The notes under the pieces were generated by a model, which saw nothing but the letters and a program-made list of their open reading frames with translations, did not search any database and had not been told where the DNA came from. 64,000 nt of DNA from an uncultured Nitrososphaerota archaeon (GTDB lineage Archaea; Thermoproteota; Nitrososphaeria; Nitrososphaerales; Nitrosopumilaceae), in assembly GCA_963701075.1 (NCBI GenBank), contig OY969559.1, forward strand, positions 192,001 to 256,000. Reading direction: 5' to 3'. The first letter of the stretch is position 1. Each line of letters begins with the position of its first letter. Positions 1,836 through 63,981 of the stretch are shown in pieces. Made by a program: the position numbers and the translations under genes.

Positions 1836-3005
1836 ATGGATAAAAATAATGTATTTGGTAAAAAGTCAATCAAAGTACCCTTCTTTTCTCATCACATAAC
1901 AAAAGGCGACAAAAAAGCCATGATGAAGGCGTTGGATTCAATGTTACTTACTGATGGTCCCATACTTCGTCAATTTGAATCTGAATTTGCAAAATTTACG
2001 GGAGCAAAGTATGCCATAGGCATCTCAAATGCTACTGCAGCACTTCACTTATCATTGAAATCTATTGGAGTTGGAAAAGGAGATGAGGTCATTGTTCCTG
2101 ACATGACTTTTGTTGCCACCGCAAACGCTGTAAGGCTTTGTGGTGCAACTCCAGTCTTTGCAGATGTGGAAAAAGATGACATGAATATTTCTATAAATTC
2201 CATAAAAGAAAACCTGAGTTCTAGGACAAAGGCAATTTTACCAGTGCATTTTGCTGGCAAAGTTTGTAAAATTGATAAAATAAAAAAAATTGCTCAATCA
2301 AACAACCTCAAGATAATAGAGGATTGTGCTCATGCTATTGGTGCAAAATACAATGGTAAACATGTAGGAAATTTTGGGAGTGCAGGATGTTTTAGCTTCT
2401 ATCCGACAAAAAACATAACAACCATTGAAGGCGGAATGGTAATAACAAATAGTAAAGAAATTGGGGATTATGTCAGATCTGCAAGAAACCACGGTATAAC
2501 CAAATCGTTATCTCAGAGATACTCACATGGAAAGCCTTGGGAATACGATATACTCGAGTCTGGTTATAATTATAGGCTGGACGAAATCCGTGCTGCATTG
2601 GGCATAAATCAATTAAAGAGAATCCAGCGGTTGAATTTGTCAAGAAAAAAGGCATTTGAATATTATAATAAAAACCTAGAGACAATTCCTGGCATAATTA
2701 CTCCTGTCATTTCGGCAAAATATGACAATGTATATCACTTGTATATAGTTAGAATACAAAAAAATTTCGGAATTCCAAGAGATGTTTTATTTGAAAAATT
2801 GCGTGAACAGGGGATTAGTACGTCTGTACATTACAAACCTCTACATCTGTTTACAACATTTCGCAAATTGAAACGACATAACAAAAGTTTGAAAAATACA
2901 CAGGATCTGTATAATGAAATTATTTCGTTACCACTGTATCCTAACATATCTAGAAAAGAACAAGATATGGTTATCAAATGTATTAAGAATGCAATAGGCA
3001 AGTAA
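1836..3005 (+). CDS. DegT/DnrJ/EryC1/StrS sugar aminotransferase
   Basis: IIEDCAHA, FSFYPTKNITTIEGG (PLP lysine), GYNYRL. Confidence 0.93.
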   Translation: MDKNNVFGKKSIKVPFFSHHITKGDKKAMMKALDSMLLTDGPILRQFESEFAKFTGAKYAIGISNATAALHLSLKSIGVGKGDEVIVPDMTFVATANAVRLCGATPVFADVEKDDMNISINSIKENLSSRTKAILPVHFAGKVCKIDKIKKIAQSNNLKIIEDCAHAIGAKYNGKHVGNFGSAGCFSFYPTKNITTIEGGMVITNSKEIGDYVRSARNHGITKSLSQRYSHGKPWEYDILESGYNYRLDEIRAALGINQLKRIQRLNLSRKKAFEYYNKNLETIPGIITPVISAKYDNVYHLYIVRIQKNFGIPRDVLFEKLREQGISTSVHYKPLHLFTTFRKLKRHNKSLKNTQDLYNEIISLPLYPNISRKEQDMVIKCIKNAIGK

Positions 3006-3012
3006 AGGATAT

Positions 3013-4152
3013 TTGCCCAAAATGAGAAGAATCAAAATCCTCTTCTTTGAACAAATTTATACAAAATATGTTGTTCATCTAAGTAAGACAATTTCCTCTG
3101 ATGAGTTTAATGTTAATTATATTGCATGTCTATCCACCCAATATTGGGAGCAATCCAATGTTGCAGGTAAAAATCATAGAGAAAGTAAAATCAAAGCACT
3201 TTCAATTCCAATAAAGACTGGATCACGTGGTACACATTTTGAAGTTATCAGTCTTCATTTTCTGTGGTATTTGATAAAAGACAAACCCGACTTGGTTGTA
3301 ATAGATCCCAATCCTGCTTTTTCAGTGTTTTATCTCTTGCTTACAAAAATTCTTGGAGCAAAAATTCTCGGATTTACAACCCATATTCCAGACAAATCTT
3401 CGTTATGGGGCAAAATTTCTGATTTCATTTTAAAGTTTAATGATTTTCTTATTGATTCCTATGTAGTACCTAGCTCGGTTAAGAAGCAACTTATGATCAA
3501 ATTAGGAATAGATTCTAATAAAATCAATGTAATAGGGCATGCAATAGATGTTGAAAAATTCCAGATTGCTGAAAATGCAATTAAGAATAAAATTTCAACC
3601 CAAAAAAAAATTATTTTATTTGTAGGACGTTTTGTCTGCTATAAGGGAATTAAATATCTGGTTGAAAGTTTTCAGCTAGTAAATGAGAAAATAAATGGCG
3701 TATGTCTAGTTCTTATTGGAGATGGGCCAGAAAAACCATCAATTAACCAATTAATAAAAAATTTGAAATTGTCTGATGATGTTTTACAAATTGATAATAT
3801 TGCAAACTCTGAAATACCTGAATATTATGCAGAGGCTGATATTCTGGTTGTTCCTTCTATAGAACCAGAACCTTTTGGTTTGGTCTACATTGAGGGAATG
3901 TCTGCAGGAAAACCAATTATTACGTTTAATGTAGGCGGCGGAGAGCAAGATTTGATCTACAATCAAAAGAATGGGTTACTTGTGAATTCAAAAGATGTCA
4001 ATGGGCTTGCTAATGCTATCATAGATCTTTTAGAGGATGATAAAAAACGAAAACAAATGGGAATGAATGCAAGAAAATTTGTTGAAGAAAATTATGATAT
4101 TCACATTATTGCAGAAAAATGGAGAAAAATAATCAGGGACCTAGTCCAATAG
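3013..4152 (+). CDS. Glycosyltransferase family 4
   Basis: LFVGRF..KG; PS..EPFGLVYIEGM. Confidence 0.9.
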   Translation: MPKMRRIKILFFEQIYTKYVVHLSKTISSDEFNVNYIACLSTQYWEQSNVAGKNHRESKIKALSIPIKTGSRGTHFEVISLHFLWYLIKDKPDLVVIDPNPAFSVFYLLLTKILGAKILGFTTHIPDKSSLWGKISDFILKFNDFLIDSYVVPSSVKKQLMIKLGIDSNKINVIGHAIDVEKFQIAENAIKNKISTQKKIILFVGRFVCYKGIKYLVESFQLVNEKINGVCLVLIGDGPEKPSINQLIKNLKLSDDVLQIDNIANSEIPEYYAEADILVVPSIEPEPFGLVYIEGMSAGKPIITFNVGGGEQDLIYNQKNGLLVNSKDVNGLANAIIDLLEDDKKRKQMGMNARKFVEENYDIHIIAEKWRKIIRDLVQ

Positions 4153-58645: not shown

Positions 58646-61418
58646 TTAGTCCCAGAATCCTCGCGTAGTAACATACTGTCTTTCTGCTTCGTATATCTGT
58701 CGGTAAAGTTCTTCTTCGCCTACCATGTTTCGCAGTATCCTTGCCCCAGTGTCTGCACCAACACCATATCCTGACAACACAACAAGTGCAGTACTTCCAA
58801 AATTTTCTAACAGCGATGAAACCTTCCACGCGCGATTGAACTTGTGGTCCTCCTCTGCGGTTATTTTTTTTCCTGCCGCCTTTTTTTGTACTATTTTTGA
58901 TAGGTCATAGTCAGAGTAAAACGTAGCAGAGACCTGCCTTGACTTGCAGTGCGGACAGACAAGCGCCCCCTTTACTTCACGGGTTTCTACCACTTTTTCC
59001 CACTTGCCGCAACGCATACAGACAAGCCTATGTTTTGTTTTGACAAGCCGTGCTTTTACCAAGTCAAGCACCCCCTTGTCCAAGTTTGCAGGAGACGAAT
59101 AGTATTTTGTGGTGTGATCAAGTATTGGCTCTGCAAGTTTTGAGAAACTATCAGCCTCAAACCACCGCAATGTTATGGTATCATTTCGTATACTTTCAAG
59201 AGTTTTAGCTGTTCCCTCCAAGTCATACTTGTCGTGGAAGAGCTCCCGCAGGGCTTCCTTTGCAAGTACAGTGGCAGAATATCTTTCATAGAGAAACCTT
59301 GCAGATTTTCTGTCATATACTGCCTCCCTGCCTACGATTCCAAATTTTTTTGCAACACACCAAGTTCTCCAGTTTACGTTATGTGTACCAGAAAGCGATG
59401 CACGAACAATTGACTCCAATTCATACTTGTCTTTTAGTACGGAAAGCACCGAGTCCTCGTTGATTCTCCCATTTGATGATATCATGATTCTATATGCATC
59501 AGACCTTGAATCAACAAGATATCCACTCTTTGCAGAAAGCATTGCAGAAAGAAGTGTGGCAAGTGTTGCGTTGATCCTAGTTCCAAAGCACGCATGAATT
59601 ACTATGGTGTTTCTAGCACGCTGCGATTCCACAACAATTGTTTTCTCGTCTGGAATTGCATCCATCTTTAGACTCTCAATTATCTTGTTTGCAAGAGGCT
59701 CAAGCTTTGTCTTGGTGCGATATAACCCCACTTTTCTTGCAGTGGCAAGATCAACTGGTATGTTCTCTCCCTCCCAGTATGGAACATTTATTCCAGCAGA
59801 CTGGACTGGTTCTACGTTTATCTTAAGTGAACTGTCATCAACGTTTAAAATTCTCCATTGCATCCCGCGCAACACAAAGACATTTCCTGGGTCGCCGTGG
59901 TCACCTACAAATCTCTGGTCAAGGCTTCCGATCATTTTTTTGGATACAGTATCGAGCACCTTGAATTTCAAAATATCAGGAATTGTGGACAGGTTTTCAA
60001 AAAAATACCTAAACGAGCGTCCCCTTTTTTTGAAGACCATCTCTTCTTTATCAAAAAATACAATCGAGCCGTTATGCAGTATATCTAGCACACCAAACAG
60101 GTCATCAAGTGTTGTATCTCTAAACGAATAGGCTTGGTTTATCATCTTTAGCGCAAAGTCAATTGGAACAGTTCCAAACTGCATTGTCATGCCAACCAAG
60201 TGGTGCGCCAGCACATCTAGTGCGCCATCATGAACTATTTGGTCCTCGATTGATTTTTCCCTGACACGTTCCAGTATAGCAAGTGCTTCAAACTCGTCGT
60301 CGGCATTGTTAGTTACAATCAGTCCCTTTGCAGACAAGCCCCTGCTGTGCTTGCTTCTGCCAATTCTTTGCACAAGTTTTGATACCTGCCTTGGTGAACC
60401 ATAGTGTATCACAAGTTCCACAGAGCCAATGTCAAGACCTCACTCAAGCGATGACGTGCAAACCACGATTCCAGGCCTTCCCTCCCTTAGAGTCTCCTCA
60501 GTTTCCTCCCGTACCTGTTGTGAGAGAGAACCGTGGTGCATATCTATTCGCAGACTGGACCTCTCCTTTAGGACGGATGCTAGATATTCTGACTCGCCAC
60601 GGGTATTTGTAAACAAGAGTACTGGCGAGTCTGCATAATTTTTGGTAACGTAATCTATGATGGAATCAACAACATCGGTTATGGTCCCGTCGATATACCT
60701 TACCTCAACGTCATACTTTCTAATTGAGCGGTCCTCAATTATCTTGCATCTTCTTTTTGTTCCTACCACAAACTTGGCGGCTTCTGATGTATTTCCCACT
60801 GTTGCAGAAAGACCAACCCTTGTTACAGGAAATTTTGTGTTTGTCTGCAGCCGCTCAAGGCTCAGCGATAGCTGTGCACCGCGCTCATTTCCCAGCAGCT
60901 CGTGCACTTCGTCTATTACAATCCACTCTCAGCTCGTCAAGTGCCTGTAACATTGCTGGCTGTGTCAGTAAAATTATGATTGTCTCAGGAGTTGTTATCA
61001 GTACGTCTGGTGGTTCAAGTGCAATCTTTTTCCTAACTGACTGCGATGTATCCCCATGACGAATCTGAATTGTAAGGCCCTCATTTTCCGCATACCCAAT
61101 TACTCTACGAAAGACATCCCTGTTTAGTGCCCGGAGTGGAGTGACATATAGTGTCTTAATCTTTCCATGTTTTTTTGACTTGGCAACCCTATCAAAGATT
61201 GGAATCACGGCAGTCTCTGTCTTGCCAGAGCCTGTTGGCGCAATAACTAGTGAATCAATCTTTTGATATATTACAGGAACAGCTTTTTTCTGGATCTCAG
61301 TTAGGTGCTCAAAACCAAGATTGCGAAACTTGTTCTCTAACTCAAGCGGTAGATGATGTAGATGAGTCTGATTCTTTTGCTTGTCTTGTTCTAGATCGCT
61401 CGTATACCATTGCACCAA
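58646..61418 (-). CDS. lhr: Lhr-like DEAD/DEAH helicase, broken by a frameshift (~60930) and an in-frame TGA (60440-60442)
   Basis: APTGSGKT, TPLRAL, TTPE, DEVH, LSAT, HHGSLS, SSLE*GLDIG, QRIGRS, C-terminal Zn finger. Confidence 0.88.
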
Positions 61419-61479
61419 CTATGCCAGCACCAAATAAGATAACTGTGATAATTGGTATCTGATCGAAAATTCCTGCCAT
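61342..61479 (-). CDS. Small single-TM protein (45 aa)
   Basis: MAGIFDQIPIITVILFGAGIVGAMVYERSR; overlaps the lhr 5' region. Confidence 0.4.
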   Translation of the reverse strand: MAGIFDQIPIITVILFGAGIVGAMVYERSRTRQAKESDSSTSSTA

Positions 61480-61668
61480 GAGTCACGTTACAACCACAGT
61501 GATAAATATCTTAGCTCAAGCAAGCAACTTGCACAGATTTATTCTAATTCAGTTCTCTTGAGATCATAATTTTATGATCTGGATGAGAGATCAGGATTAA
61601 GATATTAAGCTGCGATGAAATGTAAATGAAATGATTTTGTTAAATAGAAATCTTCGGTAAAGAAACCT

Positions 61669-61752
61669 GTCAGGGTCGCCAAGTAAGGTATGGCGTGTGT
61701 CTGAAAAACACATTTTCCCCCGGATACGTGGGTTCAATTCCCACCCCTGACG
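61669..61752 (+). tRNA. Atypical tRNA: GAA anticodon, long variable arm, G discriminator
   Basis: gtcaggg/ccctgac acceptor; gcc/ggc D-stem; tgtgt-ctGAAaa-acaca; 15-nt variable region; gtggg-ttcaatt-cccac. Confidence 0.8.
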
Positions 61753-61810
61753 GGTTTATCACAATATGGATTTAGAGTCTAATTAATGTTTTAGTCTGCT
61801 GAAAATTTGT

Positions 61811-62458
61811 TCAAGCTATTTCTACAATCCCTTCTGGTTCTATCTTGTATGCAACCTCTTTTTTCATGCCAAATGCAGGCAGTACCTGTGCAGAAAACTT
61901 GTTTCCCTCTTTTGATAGCCTGATCTTTTTGTGAGTAAAGATGCTAATTGACTTGTCAAGGTTCTCCCTGTCTTGCTCGCCTGACCTTCTGACAACGTTG
62001 GTTATAACAACTGGAATCTTGTTTTGGATGCAAAGCAAGCTGAGTGAGTGCATGTATTCCATGAATTTTACGTGTTTTTCAAGCGAGTTTGATTCTTTAG
62101 AGTACTCGAACGAAAAAAGATCTGTAATATTGTCTATTATGACTAGTCCCGGATTTACCTGAGATATGTTTTTGAGATGATTGATTTGCTCGGCGATATT
62201 TGTCACTCGCGCAACAATTATGTTGTCTAAAAGACTTGGCGCAAGTTGTCTGGCATGCATTAGCTGAAGTATTCTTTCAGGTCTAAAGCTGCCGCTTGTG
62301 TCCTGATAAATTATTTTTTTATTCATAGCATTGGTACAAATCTGCATTGCAAGTTGCGTCTTTCCGCTTCCACCAGGTCCAAAGATGTCAGTTATGATGC
62401 CAGCAGCTATTCCCCCACCCAATAGATTATCAAGTCTTGGTAGACCAGTTGAGATCAA
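61811..62458 (-). CDS. RadB-like RecA/RadA paralog
   Basis: ISTG...LD.LLGGG, GPGGSGKTQL, FRPERI; lacks the RadA N-terminal domain. Confidence 0.85.
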   Translation of the reverse strand: MISTGLPRLDNLLGGGIAAGIITDIFGPGGSGKTQLAMQICTNAMNKKIIYQDTSGSFRPERILQLMHARQLAPSLLDNIIVARVTNIAEQINHLKNISQVNPGLVIIDNITDLFSFEYSKESNSLEKHVKFMEYMHSLSLLCIQNKIPVVITNVVRRSGEQDRENLDKSISIFTHKKIRLSKEGNKFSAQVLPAFGMKKEVAYKIEPEGIVEIA

Positions 62459-62557: not shown

Positions 62558-62803
62558 TTGTCGCAACCACCGACTCAGAAACGACCTCTAACAACGCTGC
62601 AAAAAGGTGTTAACAAAAAGGTTACGGTCAGACTCAAAAGCGATATAGAGTACAAAGGAAAAATGAACAATGTTGATTCCTACATGAATTTAATCATGAC
62701 AGATGCAGAGGAGGTCAGTGGTGGCAAGGTGGTTGCAAATTATGGTAGAGTTATCGTAAGAGGCAATAATGTACTTTTTATCAAATTAGAAAATGAGCTG
62801 TAA
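62558..62803 (+). CDS. Sm/Lsm RNA-binding protein
   Basis: G....D.YMNL...DAEE; VRGNNV. Confidence 0.93.
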
Positions 62804-63981
62804 TGACCCTGACAATGAAAGAAGCGGGTAGGAACTATCTATTTACTTCAGAATCGGTCACCGAGGGTCATCCAGACAAGGTGTGCGATCAAATTTCAGA
62901 CGCAATTTTGGACGAGTTTCTAAAACAAGACCCTGATTCAAGAGTTGCAGTTGAGACCATGACAACTACAGGAATTGTTGTGGTGGCAGGCGAGGTCACA
63001 TCAAAGGCAAGATTTGACATTCAAGATGTAGTCAGAAAAACAATCAAGGAGATAGGCTATAACGATCCCCAGTATGGTTTTGATGCTGACTCGTGCAGTG
63101 TTCTAGTTTCCATTCATTCCCAAAGTCCTGACATCTCAAATGGAATCTCTGCCAATGAAAACAAGGAGCAGGGAGCAGGAGACCAGGGACTGATGTTTGG
63201 CTATGCAACAAACGAGACTGCAGAATTTATGCCGATGCCAATAATGCTTGCTCACAAGCTTACCCAGCGTCTTGCAGAGGCAAGAAAGAAAAAGGAACTT
63301 CCATGGGCAAGACCTGACGGAAAATCACAGGTTACCATAGAATATGAAGATGGCAAGCCAAAAAGGATCGAGGCCATTGTTGTTTCAACACAGCATTCTC
63401 CTGACATTACAAACGAAGAGATAAAAAAAGAAATTATTGAAAAGGTGATCAAACCAGTCTGCGGCAATCTATGGAATGATAAAATAAAGATCCACGTAAA
63501 TCCAACTGGAAGATTCGTAATTGGCGGACCTCCAGGAGACGCAGGACTTACGGGAAGAAAGATAATTGTGGACACATATGGTGGCATGGGAAGACATGGC
63601 GGAGGGGCATTTTCCGGAAAAGATCCATCAAAGGTAGATAGATCCGCGTGTTATATGTGCAGATACATTGCAAAAAATATTGTAGCGGCAGGACTTGCAG
63701 ACCGCTGCGAAGTCCAAGTTGCATATGCAATAGGGGTAGCACAACCAGTTTCCCTCATGGTCAGCACATTTGGCACAGGCAAGATCCCAGAAGAGCAGAT
63801 TGAGAACCTAGTTAGAAAACATTTTGACATGAGACCTGCTGCAATCATATCTCAACTGAAATTAAAGAACCCAATTTACAGAAAGACTGCAGCATATGGA
63901 CATTTTGGAAGGGACGAGCCAGAATTTACTTGGGAAAAGACAGACAAGGCTGACACACTAAGAAAGGCGGCAGGCCTGTAG
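62803..63981 (+). CDS. metK: S-adenosylmethionine synthetase (bacterial/eukaryotic type)
   Basis: [35 protein letters not shown]. Confidence 0.97.

Follow-up and report, generated by a model that had tools for sequence, protein, structure and literature searches.

A conserved archaeal family of long-armed, serine-like transfer RNA genes with a phenylalanine anticodon

Which amino acid would be carried by a transfer RNA (tRNA) whose anticodon points to one synthetase and whose body points to another? This question is raised by an 84-nucleotide (nt) class II tRNA gene located at 61669-61752, on the plus strand, of the window analysed here, a 64,000-nt stretch from the genome (G000) of an uncultured Nitrososphaerota archaeon. 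The original prediction, made from the letters of this stretch, had placed a phenylalanine (Phe) anticodon on a serine/leucine (Ser/Leu)-type body in an archaeal setting, and this holds, with a body that, judged by its sequence, is Ser-like rather than Leu- or Phe-like. This is a genuine tRNA gene whose cloverleaf is conserved, and it belongs to a family in the Nitrosopumilaceae in which the anticodon GAA is almost invariant and under selection.

The 84-nt reading is supported by direct parsing, ARAGORN, Rfam and covariation. The acceptor stem GTCAGGG/CCCTGAC is paired at 7 of 7 positions and followed by U8 and C9; the D stem GCCA/TGGC (4 of 4) closes a 9-nt D loop, AGTAAGGTA, and is followed by G26; the anticodon stem TGTGT/ACACA (5 of 5) carries the loop CUGAAAA (CTGAAAA in the DNA), with the anticodon GAA and A37; the variable region of 15 nt contains a 3-bp TCC/GGA stem; the T arm reads GTGGG-TTCAATT-CCCAC (5 of 5); and the discriminator is G73, with CCA not encoded. 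All 21 pairs of the window copy are therefore intact. ARAGORN calls a tRNA-Phe(gaa) one nucleotide longer at either end (61668-61753), with a T.G pair extending the acceptor stem, and the Rfam tRNA model (RF00005, gathering score 29) matches 61669-61752 over its full length with 57.8 bits (E 1.6e-11). The cloverleaf originally described, with perfect acceptor, anticodon and T stems, a CU-GAA-AA loop, a 15-nt variable region with its tcc/gga stem and a discriminator G, is reproduced by these analyses; the D arm is present as well, with a stem in which four pairs can be drawn instead of the three counted at first. The elongator features U8, A14, G18G19, U33 and GTTCRA are kept in the family, whose T stem is the same as that of the host tRNA-Ser and tRNA-Leu. 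A tRNA on the opposite strand was considered and rejected, since ARAGORN, run on both strands, calls the plus strand only and the reverse complement has by eye no D- or T-loop motifs. Archaeal selenocysteine tRNA, with its UCA anticodon, 9/4 layout and D stem of 6-7 bp, was likewise set aside, as the gene shows none of these features.

Relatives were sought by BLAST and then with a covariance model, R1, built from 14 members, in 63 genomes of the same genus; the counts for G028 and G034, and two rows of the alignment (A1) behind R1, derive from genomes marked unpublished. The resulting catalogue holds 48 rows, among them four pairs identical in sequence: 34 rows fall in 15 genomes of the genus, 7 in entries of four other genera, 5 in named records (labelled Nitrosarchaeum, Nitrosopumilus, Nitrosopumilaceae and Thaumarchaeota) and 2 in viral contigs. 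Copy number per genome of the genus ranges from 0 to 7, with seven copies in G027, four in G013, three each in G020, G033, G034 and G066, two each in G079 and G085, and one in seven genomes. After the catalogue had been compiled, G066 yielded a further GAA gene, G074 a member with CAG, and G031 and G036 one decayed copy each. At the level of the taxonomic family, a model search with a stringent threshold returned GAA members in G122, G156, G115 (two) and G105 (two), four complete genomes from three other genera, and BLAST against 24 genomes from the order but outside this family gave T-arm-sized matches only. The conservation in relatives on which the original prediction had left its reading to depend is thus found, in the form of a multi-copy family present in several genera. 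In the 14-sequence alignment, 94.9% of the cells are paired and 13 of the 21 pairs are changed on both sides, with compensatory changes in all four stems; both the 7-bp acceptor stem and the 5-bp T stem are supported by covariation. None of 500 shuffles matched the observed pairing, and slid registers paired only 37-46%. Across the catalogue, 21 of the 48 rows keep every one of the 21 pairs.

The anticodon is GAA in 43 of the 48 rows as parsed and, by eye, in L026, which the parser misread; the other rows have GTC (L064), GAG (L076), CAA (L219) or, in L077, a damaged loop of 6 nt. A discriminator G is present in 45 rows, position 37 is A in most and G in three members, and the six loop positions from T33 to A38 are invariant in the 14-member alignment, against a mean column identity of 75%. 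A pattern for the 3' end that left the anticodon free gave 18 matches in the 63 genomes and none in a reversed control; 17 matches include the anticodon arm, 16 with GAA and one with GTC, and the eighteenth lies on a contig starting inside the tRNA past that arm. A metagenome scan in which the middle anticodon base was left free returned 33 matches, of which 19 are low-GC and archaeal-type, all with GAA, and 14 are high-GC bacterial tRNA-Ser(GGA) genes matching at the trailer by chance. At one locus (L076, G027:C55), two members on the same strand, at 771-860 and 3001-3089, one with GAA and one with GAG, flank a multicopper oxidase gene.

A Ser or Leu anticodon in reads or orthologues had been named at the outset as grounds for abandoning the reading. 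As about 44 of the 48 catalogued relatives also have GAA, a base error in the window is excluded, and on this side the reading stands; on the other side, one low-depth contig reads GGA. This contig of 151 nt, from a run whose RNA-Seq label is a guess, matches a cassette of the G000 type with a G at 61704, the middle anticodon base, at a depth of 2.1; it differs at 13 sites of many kinds, and at such depth the G may be an error. If real, it would mean that a cassette nearly identical to this one has a serine anticodon, as suits a body charged with serine. The same contig could be taken to mean that A35 is edited after transcription so as to pair like G, the mature tRNA then reading UCY as an ordinary tRNA-Ser, and position 35 is described as edited in marsupial mitochondrial tRNA-Asp (PMC9976931). 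The 13 differences, being of many kinds, point to a contig from another strain and count against editing, as do the low depth and the chance that the run is DNA. To our knowledge, there is no case of A-to-I editing at tRNA position 35, which also counts against this explanation, and it is regarded as very improbable.

The suggestion that the gene is a neutral, decaying copy of a tRNA-Ser, or an assembly error, is just as remote. Decay is visible in about 9 of the 48 rows and in two copies at a second locus (see below), and split genes in G000 suggest indel errors. This view is contradicted by the intact pairs of the window copy, by the compensatory changes and by the recurrence of GAA in independent assemblies, metagenomes and viral contigs; moreover, decay from GGA would be expected to leave many anticodons with GGA the commonest, and the 63 genomes of the genus yielded no member with GGA.

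The body was assessed with small isotype models built from four intron-free tRNA-Ser and from four tRNA-Leu sequences, respectively. On these, the window tRNA reaches 73.3 bits as Ser and 55.9 bits as Leu under its Phe anticodon, so that the discord between body and anticodon put forward originally is recovered in this four-sequence approximation of isotype scoring. Of 41 family loci, only L223 scores higher on the Leu model, by 1.9 bits; the other 40 favour Ser. As controls, a tRNA-Ser(GGA) outside the training set gives 82.3 bits as Ser and 53.5 as Leu, and canonical tRNA-Leu genes reach 59-66 bits on the Ser model. Scored in turn on the family model R1, tRNA-Ser(GCT) obtains 74.7 bits, the intron-containing tRNA-Ser(GGA) 63.5, tRNA-Leu(CAG) 57.1 and canonical tRNA-Phe 47.8. 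The D arm, with 4 bp and a 9-nt loop, has the layout of tRNA-Ser, as compared with 3 bp and 13 nt in tRNA-Leu, and G30-C40 is present in the window tRNA and in 11 of the 14 aligned members. With its intron removed, the host tRNA-Ser(GGA) has the loop CTGGAAA, of which the family loop CTGAAAA is the G35A version; the family is considered to be derived from tRNA-Ser.

According to the account of identity elements in PMC9976931, bacterial-type and archaeal seryl-tRNA synthetases (SerRS) are directed by G73, then by G30-C40, together with the long arm, and the anticodon is given no part; the same account names G73 as an antideterminant for the leucyl-tRNA synthetase (LeuRS) of H. volcanii. The window tRNA has the long arm, G73 and G30-C40, and differs from archaeal tRNA-Ser in its anticodon (neither NGA nor GCU) and in the layout of its variable arm. 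Assignment to tRNA-Leu, for which A73, a large D loop and AG at the end of the variable-arm loop are expected, was rejected because of G73, the 9-nt D loop and the variable-loop sequences. The variable arms of the family differ freely in sequence with compensating changes, which fits recognition of their shape by SerRS; the loops of the host tRNA-Leu keep TTAG or TCAG.

The host has ordinary tRNAs of its own for phenylalanine and serine. G000 is a single contig of 1.916 Mb with 38.6% G+C, in which many tRNA genes carry introns. The separate canonical tRNA-Phe that the original prediction left to be looked for lies at 1364452-1364528, with the loop CTGAAGA, G37, a 5-nt variable loop, A73 and an encoded CCA, and the serine isoacceptors TGA, GGA, CGA and GCT are all found; the window tRNA is thus an extra gene. 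Ordinary tRNA-Phe is found, at 92-100% identity, in 57 of the 63 genomes of the genus and in 12 of the 15 that hold the family; it is unmatched in G031, G065, G023 and G074 (54-84% complete), G079 (90%) and G085 (99%). G000 encodes one SerRS, with an N-terminal arm domain (Seryl_tRNA_N).

Taken together, it is tentatively proposed, at somewhat less than even confidence, that SerRS charges the window tRNA, which would then read UUC/UUU weakly as serine. The gene's own promoter would drive transcription, and the 7/5 tRNA released by normal processing would be serylated by the single standard SerRS of the genome, serylation being expected because this enzyme recognises the long arm and G73 whatever the anticodon. 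Once in the ribosome, the tRNA would read UUC/UUU and insert serine for phenylalanine. Archaea modify G37 of tRNA-Phe to wyosine derivatives. Owing to its A37 in place of G37, and to its single copy, the window tRNA would compete poorly with canonical tRNA-Phe, so that the outcome would be a low level of Phe-to-Ser substitution, perhaps mixed with Phe charging. The roles suggested by the original prediction, Ser at UUC/UUU, a non-ribosomal aminoacyl donor or a tRNA-like RNA, are each conjectural.

Several points weigh against this proposal. The host tRNA-Ser variable arm consists of 1 nt, 4 bp, a GCAA loop and 2 nt, and that of the window tRNA of 3 nt, 3 bp, a CCC loop and 3 nt; within a family range of 13-22 nt, many members leave 2-3 nt unpaired on either flank of the stem, often three on the 3' side, where they resemble tRNA-Leu. 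Folded alone, the window tRNA reaches a minimum free energy of -32.2 kcal/mol (z = -3.3), and in the preferred structure the 5' half of the anticodon arm pairs over 7 bp with the 3' half of the variable arm, at the expense of the variable stem and of the AU-rich anticodon stem; the cloverleaf in this region therefore rests on covariation, not on thermodynamics. An extended helix between leader and trailer, described below, could hinder normal end processing. In addition to the visibly decayed rows already mentioned, the presence of up to seven copies of a mistranslating tRNA, with GAA kept across genera, would need a benefit. The public runs that hold window positions 61200-62300 include no RNA run, from which nothing is inferred about expression; the runs holding the stretch are soil, wetland and peat metagenomes only. 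Finally, of the five Phe determinants given for an archaeon (G34, A35, A36, A73 and G20; PMC9976931), GAA supplies the first three, with A73 and G20 missing, and phenylalanyl-tRNA synthetase (PheRS) may also charge the window tRNA by way of GAA, resulting in dual charging.

Carried further, this last point leads to the idea of an extra tRNA-Phe of class II shape, which PheRS would recognise through G34-A35-A36, from which changes at the base of the variable arm would keep SerRS away, and which would read UUY as Phe. The anticodon is described as the major Phe determinant, and a yeast tRNA-Tyr given GAA as charged by PheRS (PMC9976931); the base of the variable arm is unlike that of canonical tRNA-Ser, three members have the G37 of canonical tRNA-Phe, and a conserved GAA in many copies would be harmless. 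Apart from GAA, however, the window tRNA has G73, U20, a 15-nt arm and A37 where tRNA-Phe has A73, G20, a short variable loop and G37, the G73 recurring in nearly all catalogue rows and A37 in most, and canonical tRNA-Phe is the lowest scorer on the family model. The same body is kept under CAG, GAG, CAA and GTC, which speaks for charging without regard to the anticodon, and the viral contigs that carry members are not enriched in Phe codons. An additional tRNA-Phe is consequently held to be improbable, and serylation remains the preferred reading.

The tRNA is embedded in a compact unit, and paralogues share with it a TATA-like box, a conserved leader and a downstream block. The box TTAAATA (61640-61646, plus strand), at -29 to -23 from the tRNA start, is a putative archaeal promoter; canonical tRNA genes of G000 have similar AT boxes at similar distances, and relatives have TTTTAT(G) some 23-30 nt upstream. 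In the fold of 61636-61800, the leader AAACCT (61663-61668, plus strand) pairs with G73 and the trailer GGTTT (61752-61757), adding six pairs (AAACCU/GGGUUU) to the precursor. Downstream, about 23 nt after the tRNA, the block GAGTCTAATTAATGTTTTAG (61775-61794, plus strand) is kept in most paralogues of the genus, and the same block, about 19 nt of the GAGTCTAATTAAAGTGTCG type, recurs in L002, L005, L022, L052, L071 and L354. This block may be a terminator region or a TATA-like promoter reading antisense. Where lineages differ in their downstream sequence, AT-rich boxes lie at a comparable distance.

These features also bear on the view that the product is a structured RNA with a non-decoding role, in which the CUGAAAA loop would serve as a recognition site and not as an anticodon; it might act, for example, as a decoy or substitute in a conflict over cleavage of the tRNA-Phe anticodon loop, as an element in recognition or recombination of the cassette, or as a toxic tRNA under antisense control. 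In support of such a role, the loop is nearly invariant and the rest drifts, a leader-trailer helix of at least four pairs is present in 20 of 38 family members compared with 0 of 38 canonical tRNAs of G000, and the distribution is patchy, with variable copy number and relatives on viral contigs. On the minus strand, the downstream block resembles by eye the B recognition element/TATA region of canonical tRNA genes, with a box that a hand count places about 28 nt from the tRNA 3' end, and an antisense transcript would then begin at that end, but this antisense promoter has been read by eye only. The universal tertiary and T-arm elongator elements are, on the other hand, all retained, and the loci share no partner gene. 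A non-decoding role is therefore thought unlikely, if the most plausible of the alternatives to a serine-charged, decoding tRNA.

The cassette, of about 200-330 bp, is accessory and is gained and lost as a unit. In the window it sits in an insert at 61514-61847, 334 nt long compared with about 34 nt in relatives, between an Lhr-like helicase gene (58646-61418, minus strand, in three overlapping open reading frames (ORFs)) and a Rad51/RadB-like ATPase gene (61811-62458, minus strand); as the last 37 nt or so of the insert are the diverged 3' end of the latter gene, the net gain is about 300 bp. The two flanking genes were matched in 57 other genomes of the genus and adjoin in all 10 loci inspected. 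Among these, the spacer is about 34 nt in seven, shorter in G034 and 137 nt in G036, with a truncated cassette in G033; in G013 the flank matches abut or overlap and the spacer is not measurable, and the 334-nt spacer is found in G000 alone. The nearest relatives (G006, with flanks 94-95% identical) have an empty site. Contigs from two metagenome runs join 61513 to 61868 through 54 other letters, without the cassette, and in one of these runs another contig has the filled site with GAA; likewise, a 772-nt contig of G076 is filled and another contig of the same bin empty. A second locus lies behind a small zinc-ribbon gene; its cassette is intact in G066, G013, G079 and G001, has the anticodon CAG in G074, is decayed in G031 and G036, and is replaced by 29 nt in G020. 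The 155 nt upstream of the tRNA have no match in any other genome of the genus, and a search by eye for terminal inverted or direct repeats of the insert yielded only the 6-nt TCAAGC at both ends, which is unconvincing. Pfam scans of the neighbours at 12 or more loci revealed no shared partner gene and no integrase or transposase; the neighbours encode helicases, RadB, TatC, SMC, multicopper oxidase, proline and aspartate dehydrogenases, DnaJ-ferredoxin, HIT, MscS and TrmB proteins and a cyclase-like protein.

Two predicted viral contigs from IMG/VR, with 37-39% G+C, each carry a family member (77.8 and 75.1 bits on R1) adjoining a gene with matches to head-morphogenesis proteins, and the cassette may possibly have spread via viruses. 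A strict pattern found no viral contig beyond these two, and among named phages there was neither a DNA match to the cassette nor a protein match to the viral head gene. Avoidance of Phe codons by the viruses was considered and rejected, such codons making up 3.1-3.6% in the viral contigs and 4.2% in the host. A more far-reaching and rather doubtful idea is that ammonia-oxidising archaea and their viruses exchange a self-contained cassette of promoter, tRNA and 3' block, whose product would be a serine-charged tRNA for hydrophobic codons (mainly UUY, with CUN/UUG in variants); it would amount to a natural module, passed on horizontally, for sense-codon recoding or mistranslation, possibly active in virus-host conflict or stress and possibly held in check by the precursor helix and a convergent antisense promoter, like a toxic RNA with its antidote.

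Single long-arm GAA tRNAs with a discriminator G were also noticed in Micrarchaeota, Nanoarchaeia, Acidimicrobiia and other viral contigs, and a Bacteroidales record holds a similar long-arm GAA gene that appears to end in A. These distant loci (L117, L125, L080, L082, L091, L226/L229 and L276) score 41-58 bits on R1 and are probably independent of the window family; with scores this low, the pairing of a Ser body with a Phe anticodon seems to arise repeatedly. A Methyloceanibacter record (L146, 1730-1818, minus strand) contains a bacterial tRNA-Ser-like gene with an anticodon loop of seemingly six bases, to which ARAGORN assigns no amino acid.

Some further observations concern the surroundings of the cassettes and the host genome. 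Just upstream of the second site, behind an Lrp/AsnC-like gene, lies a conserved ORF of about 40 codons that ends in the zinc-ribbon motif CPDCGGDW (L061, 2795-2915; also L024, L028, L066, L404 and L409-L411). In G000, the gene for the PheRS alpha subunit (G000:C1:1892673-1893468, minus strand) is split over two frames with a TAG; this and the Lhr-like helicase in three overlapping ORFs represent pseudogenes or assembly indel errors, the PheRS case making indel errors the likelier explanation. The 'tRNA-Ser(cga) with intron' called by ARAGORN at G000:C1:858379-858479 (minus strand) has a discriminator A and reads better as an intron-bearing tRNA-Leu(CAA). ARAGORN and Rfam detected no tRNA genes for Trp, Glu(TTC), Gln(CTG), Arg(CCT/CCG) or Leu(TAA) in G000, and these are probably hidden by unusual introns. 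Archaea usually hold a separate, archaeal-type SAM synthetase; the SAM synthetase gene at window positions 62803-63981 (plus strand) is of the bacterial/eukaryotic type, with three S-AdoMet_synt domains.

Comparable departures from the match between body and anticodon exist elsewhere. In yeasts of the CTG clade, a Ser-charged tRNA-Ser(CAG) reads a Leu codon, which has been reassigned or made dual-coding genome-wide. The G074 member, of the same cassette type, likewise has CAG, and others have GAG or CAA; in the archaeal genomes, unlike in these yeasts, the canonical tRNAs remain. Virus-encoded tRNAs are another parallel, since on both predicted viral contigs the family member lies within a module of structural genes; viral tRNAs normally keep body and anticodon matched, however. 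A related tRNA-Ser(CAG) case is described for Ascoidea (PMC6041473). The bacterial allo-tRNAs are among the closest in kind: as portrayed in PMC5389517 and PMC7609411, they have a long variable arm and Ser-type identity with many non-Ser anticodons, and occur patchily and mostly in soil and sediment organisms, often as decayed copies and with links to mobile elements, traits that the window family shares; in Escherichia coli, allo-tRNAs insert Ser at non-Ser codons. The allo-tRNAs differ in being bacterial and in their 8/4 or 9/3 acceptor/T-stem layout, whereas the window family is archaeal, 7/5 and dominated by GAA; the Ser-type body under GAA, GTC, GAG, CAG and CAA is common ground. Nematode nev-tRNAs and other V-arm tRNAs also combine class II bodies with class I anticodons in a conserved, lineage-specific family, with charging predicted or shown to follow the body and not the anticodon, and with low expression of the nev-tRNAs (PMC3333845, PMC4033280); the nev-tRNAs are eukaryotic, Leu-charged and mainly of Gly(CCC) and Ile(UAU) anticodons. 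In the human tRNA-Ser-AGA-2-3 G35A variant, the same change creates a Phe anticodon, and Ser at Phe codons is reported as measured (PMC12993449, PMC8599886), but this is a population variant of one gene with the anticodon AAA, in contrast to a conserved, spreading family with GAA. A 2014 review of such tRNAs (PMC4033280) lists no archaeal or bacterial case, and the full texts searched, which exclude subscription journals and supplementary tables, contain no report of an archaeal long-arm tRNA with mismatched body and anticodon. The phenomenon is thus already known from nematodes, other eukaryotes and soil bacteria, and the window family is an archaeal counterpart of the allo-tRNAs and nev-tRNAs.

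A mismatch conserved across genera, with one anticodon under clear selection, speaks for function rather than accident, and it is found here in several genera of globally important nitrifiers. Genes of this kind are called tRNA-Phe from the anticodon alone, which matters for annotation. If the tRNA is serylated and used, these archaea would put up with Phe-to-Ser ambiguity or make use of it, and part of the genetic code would be on the move with a 300-bp cassette.

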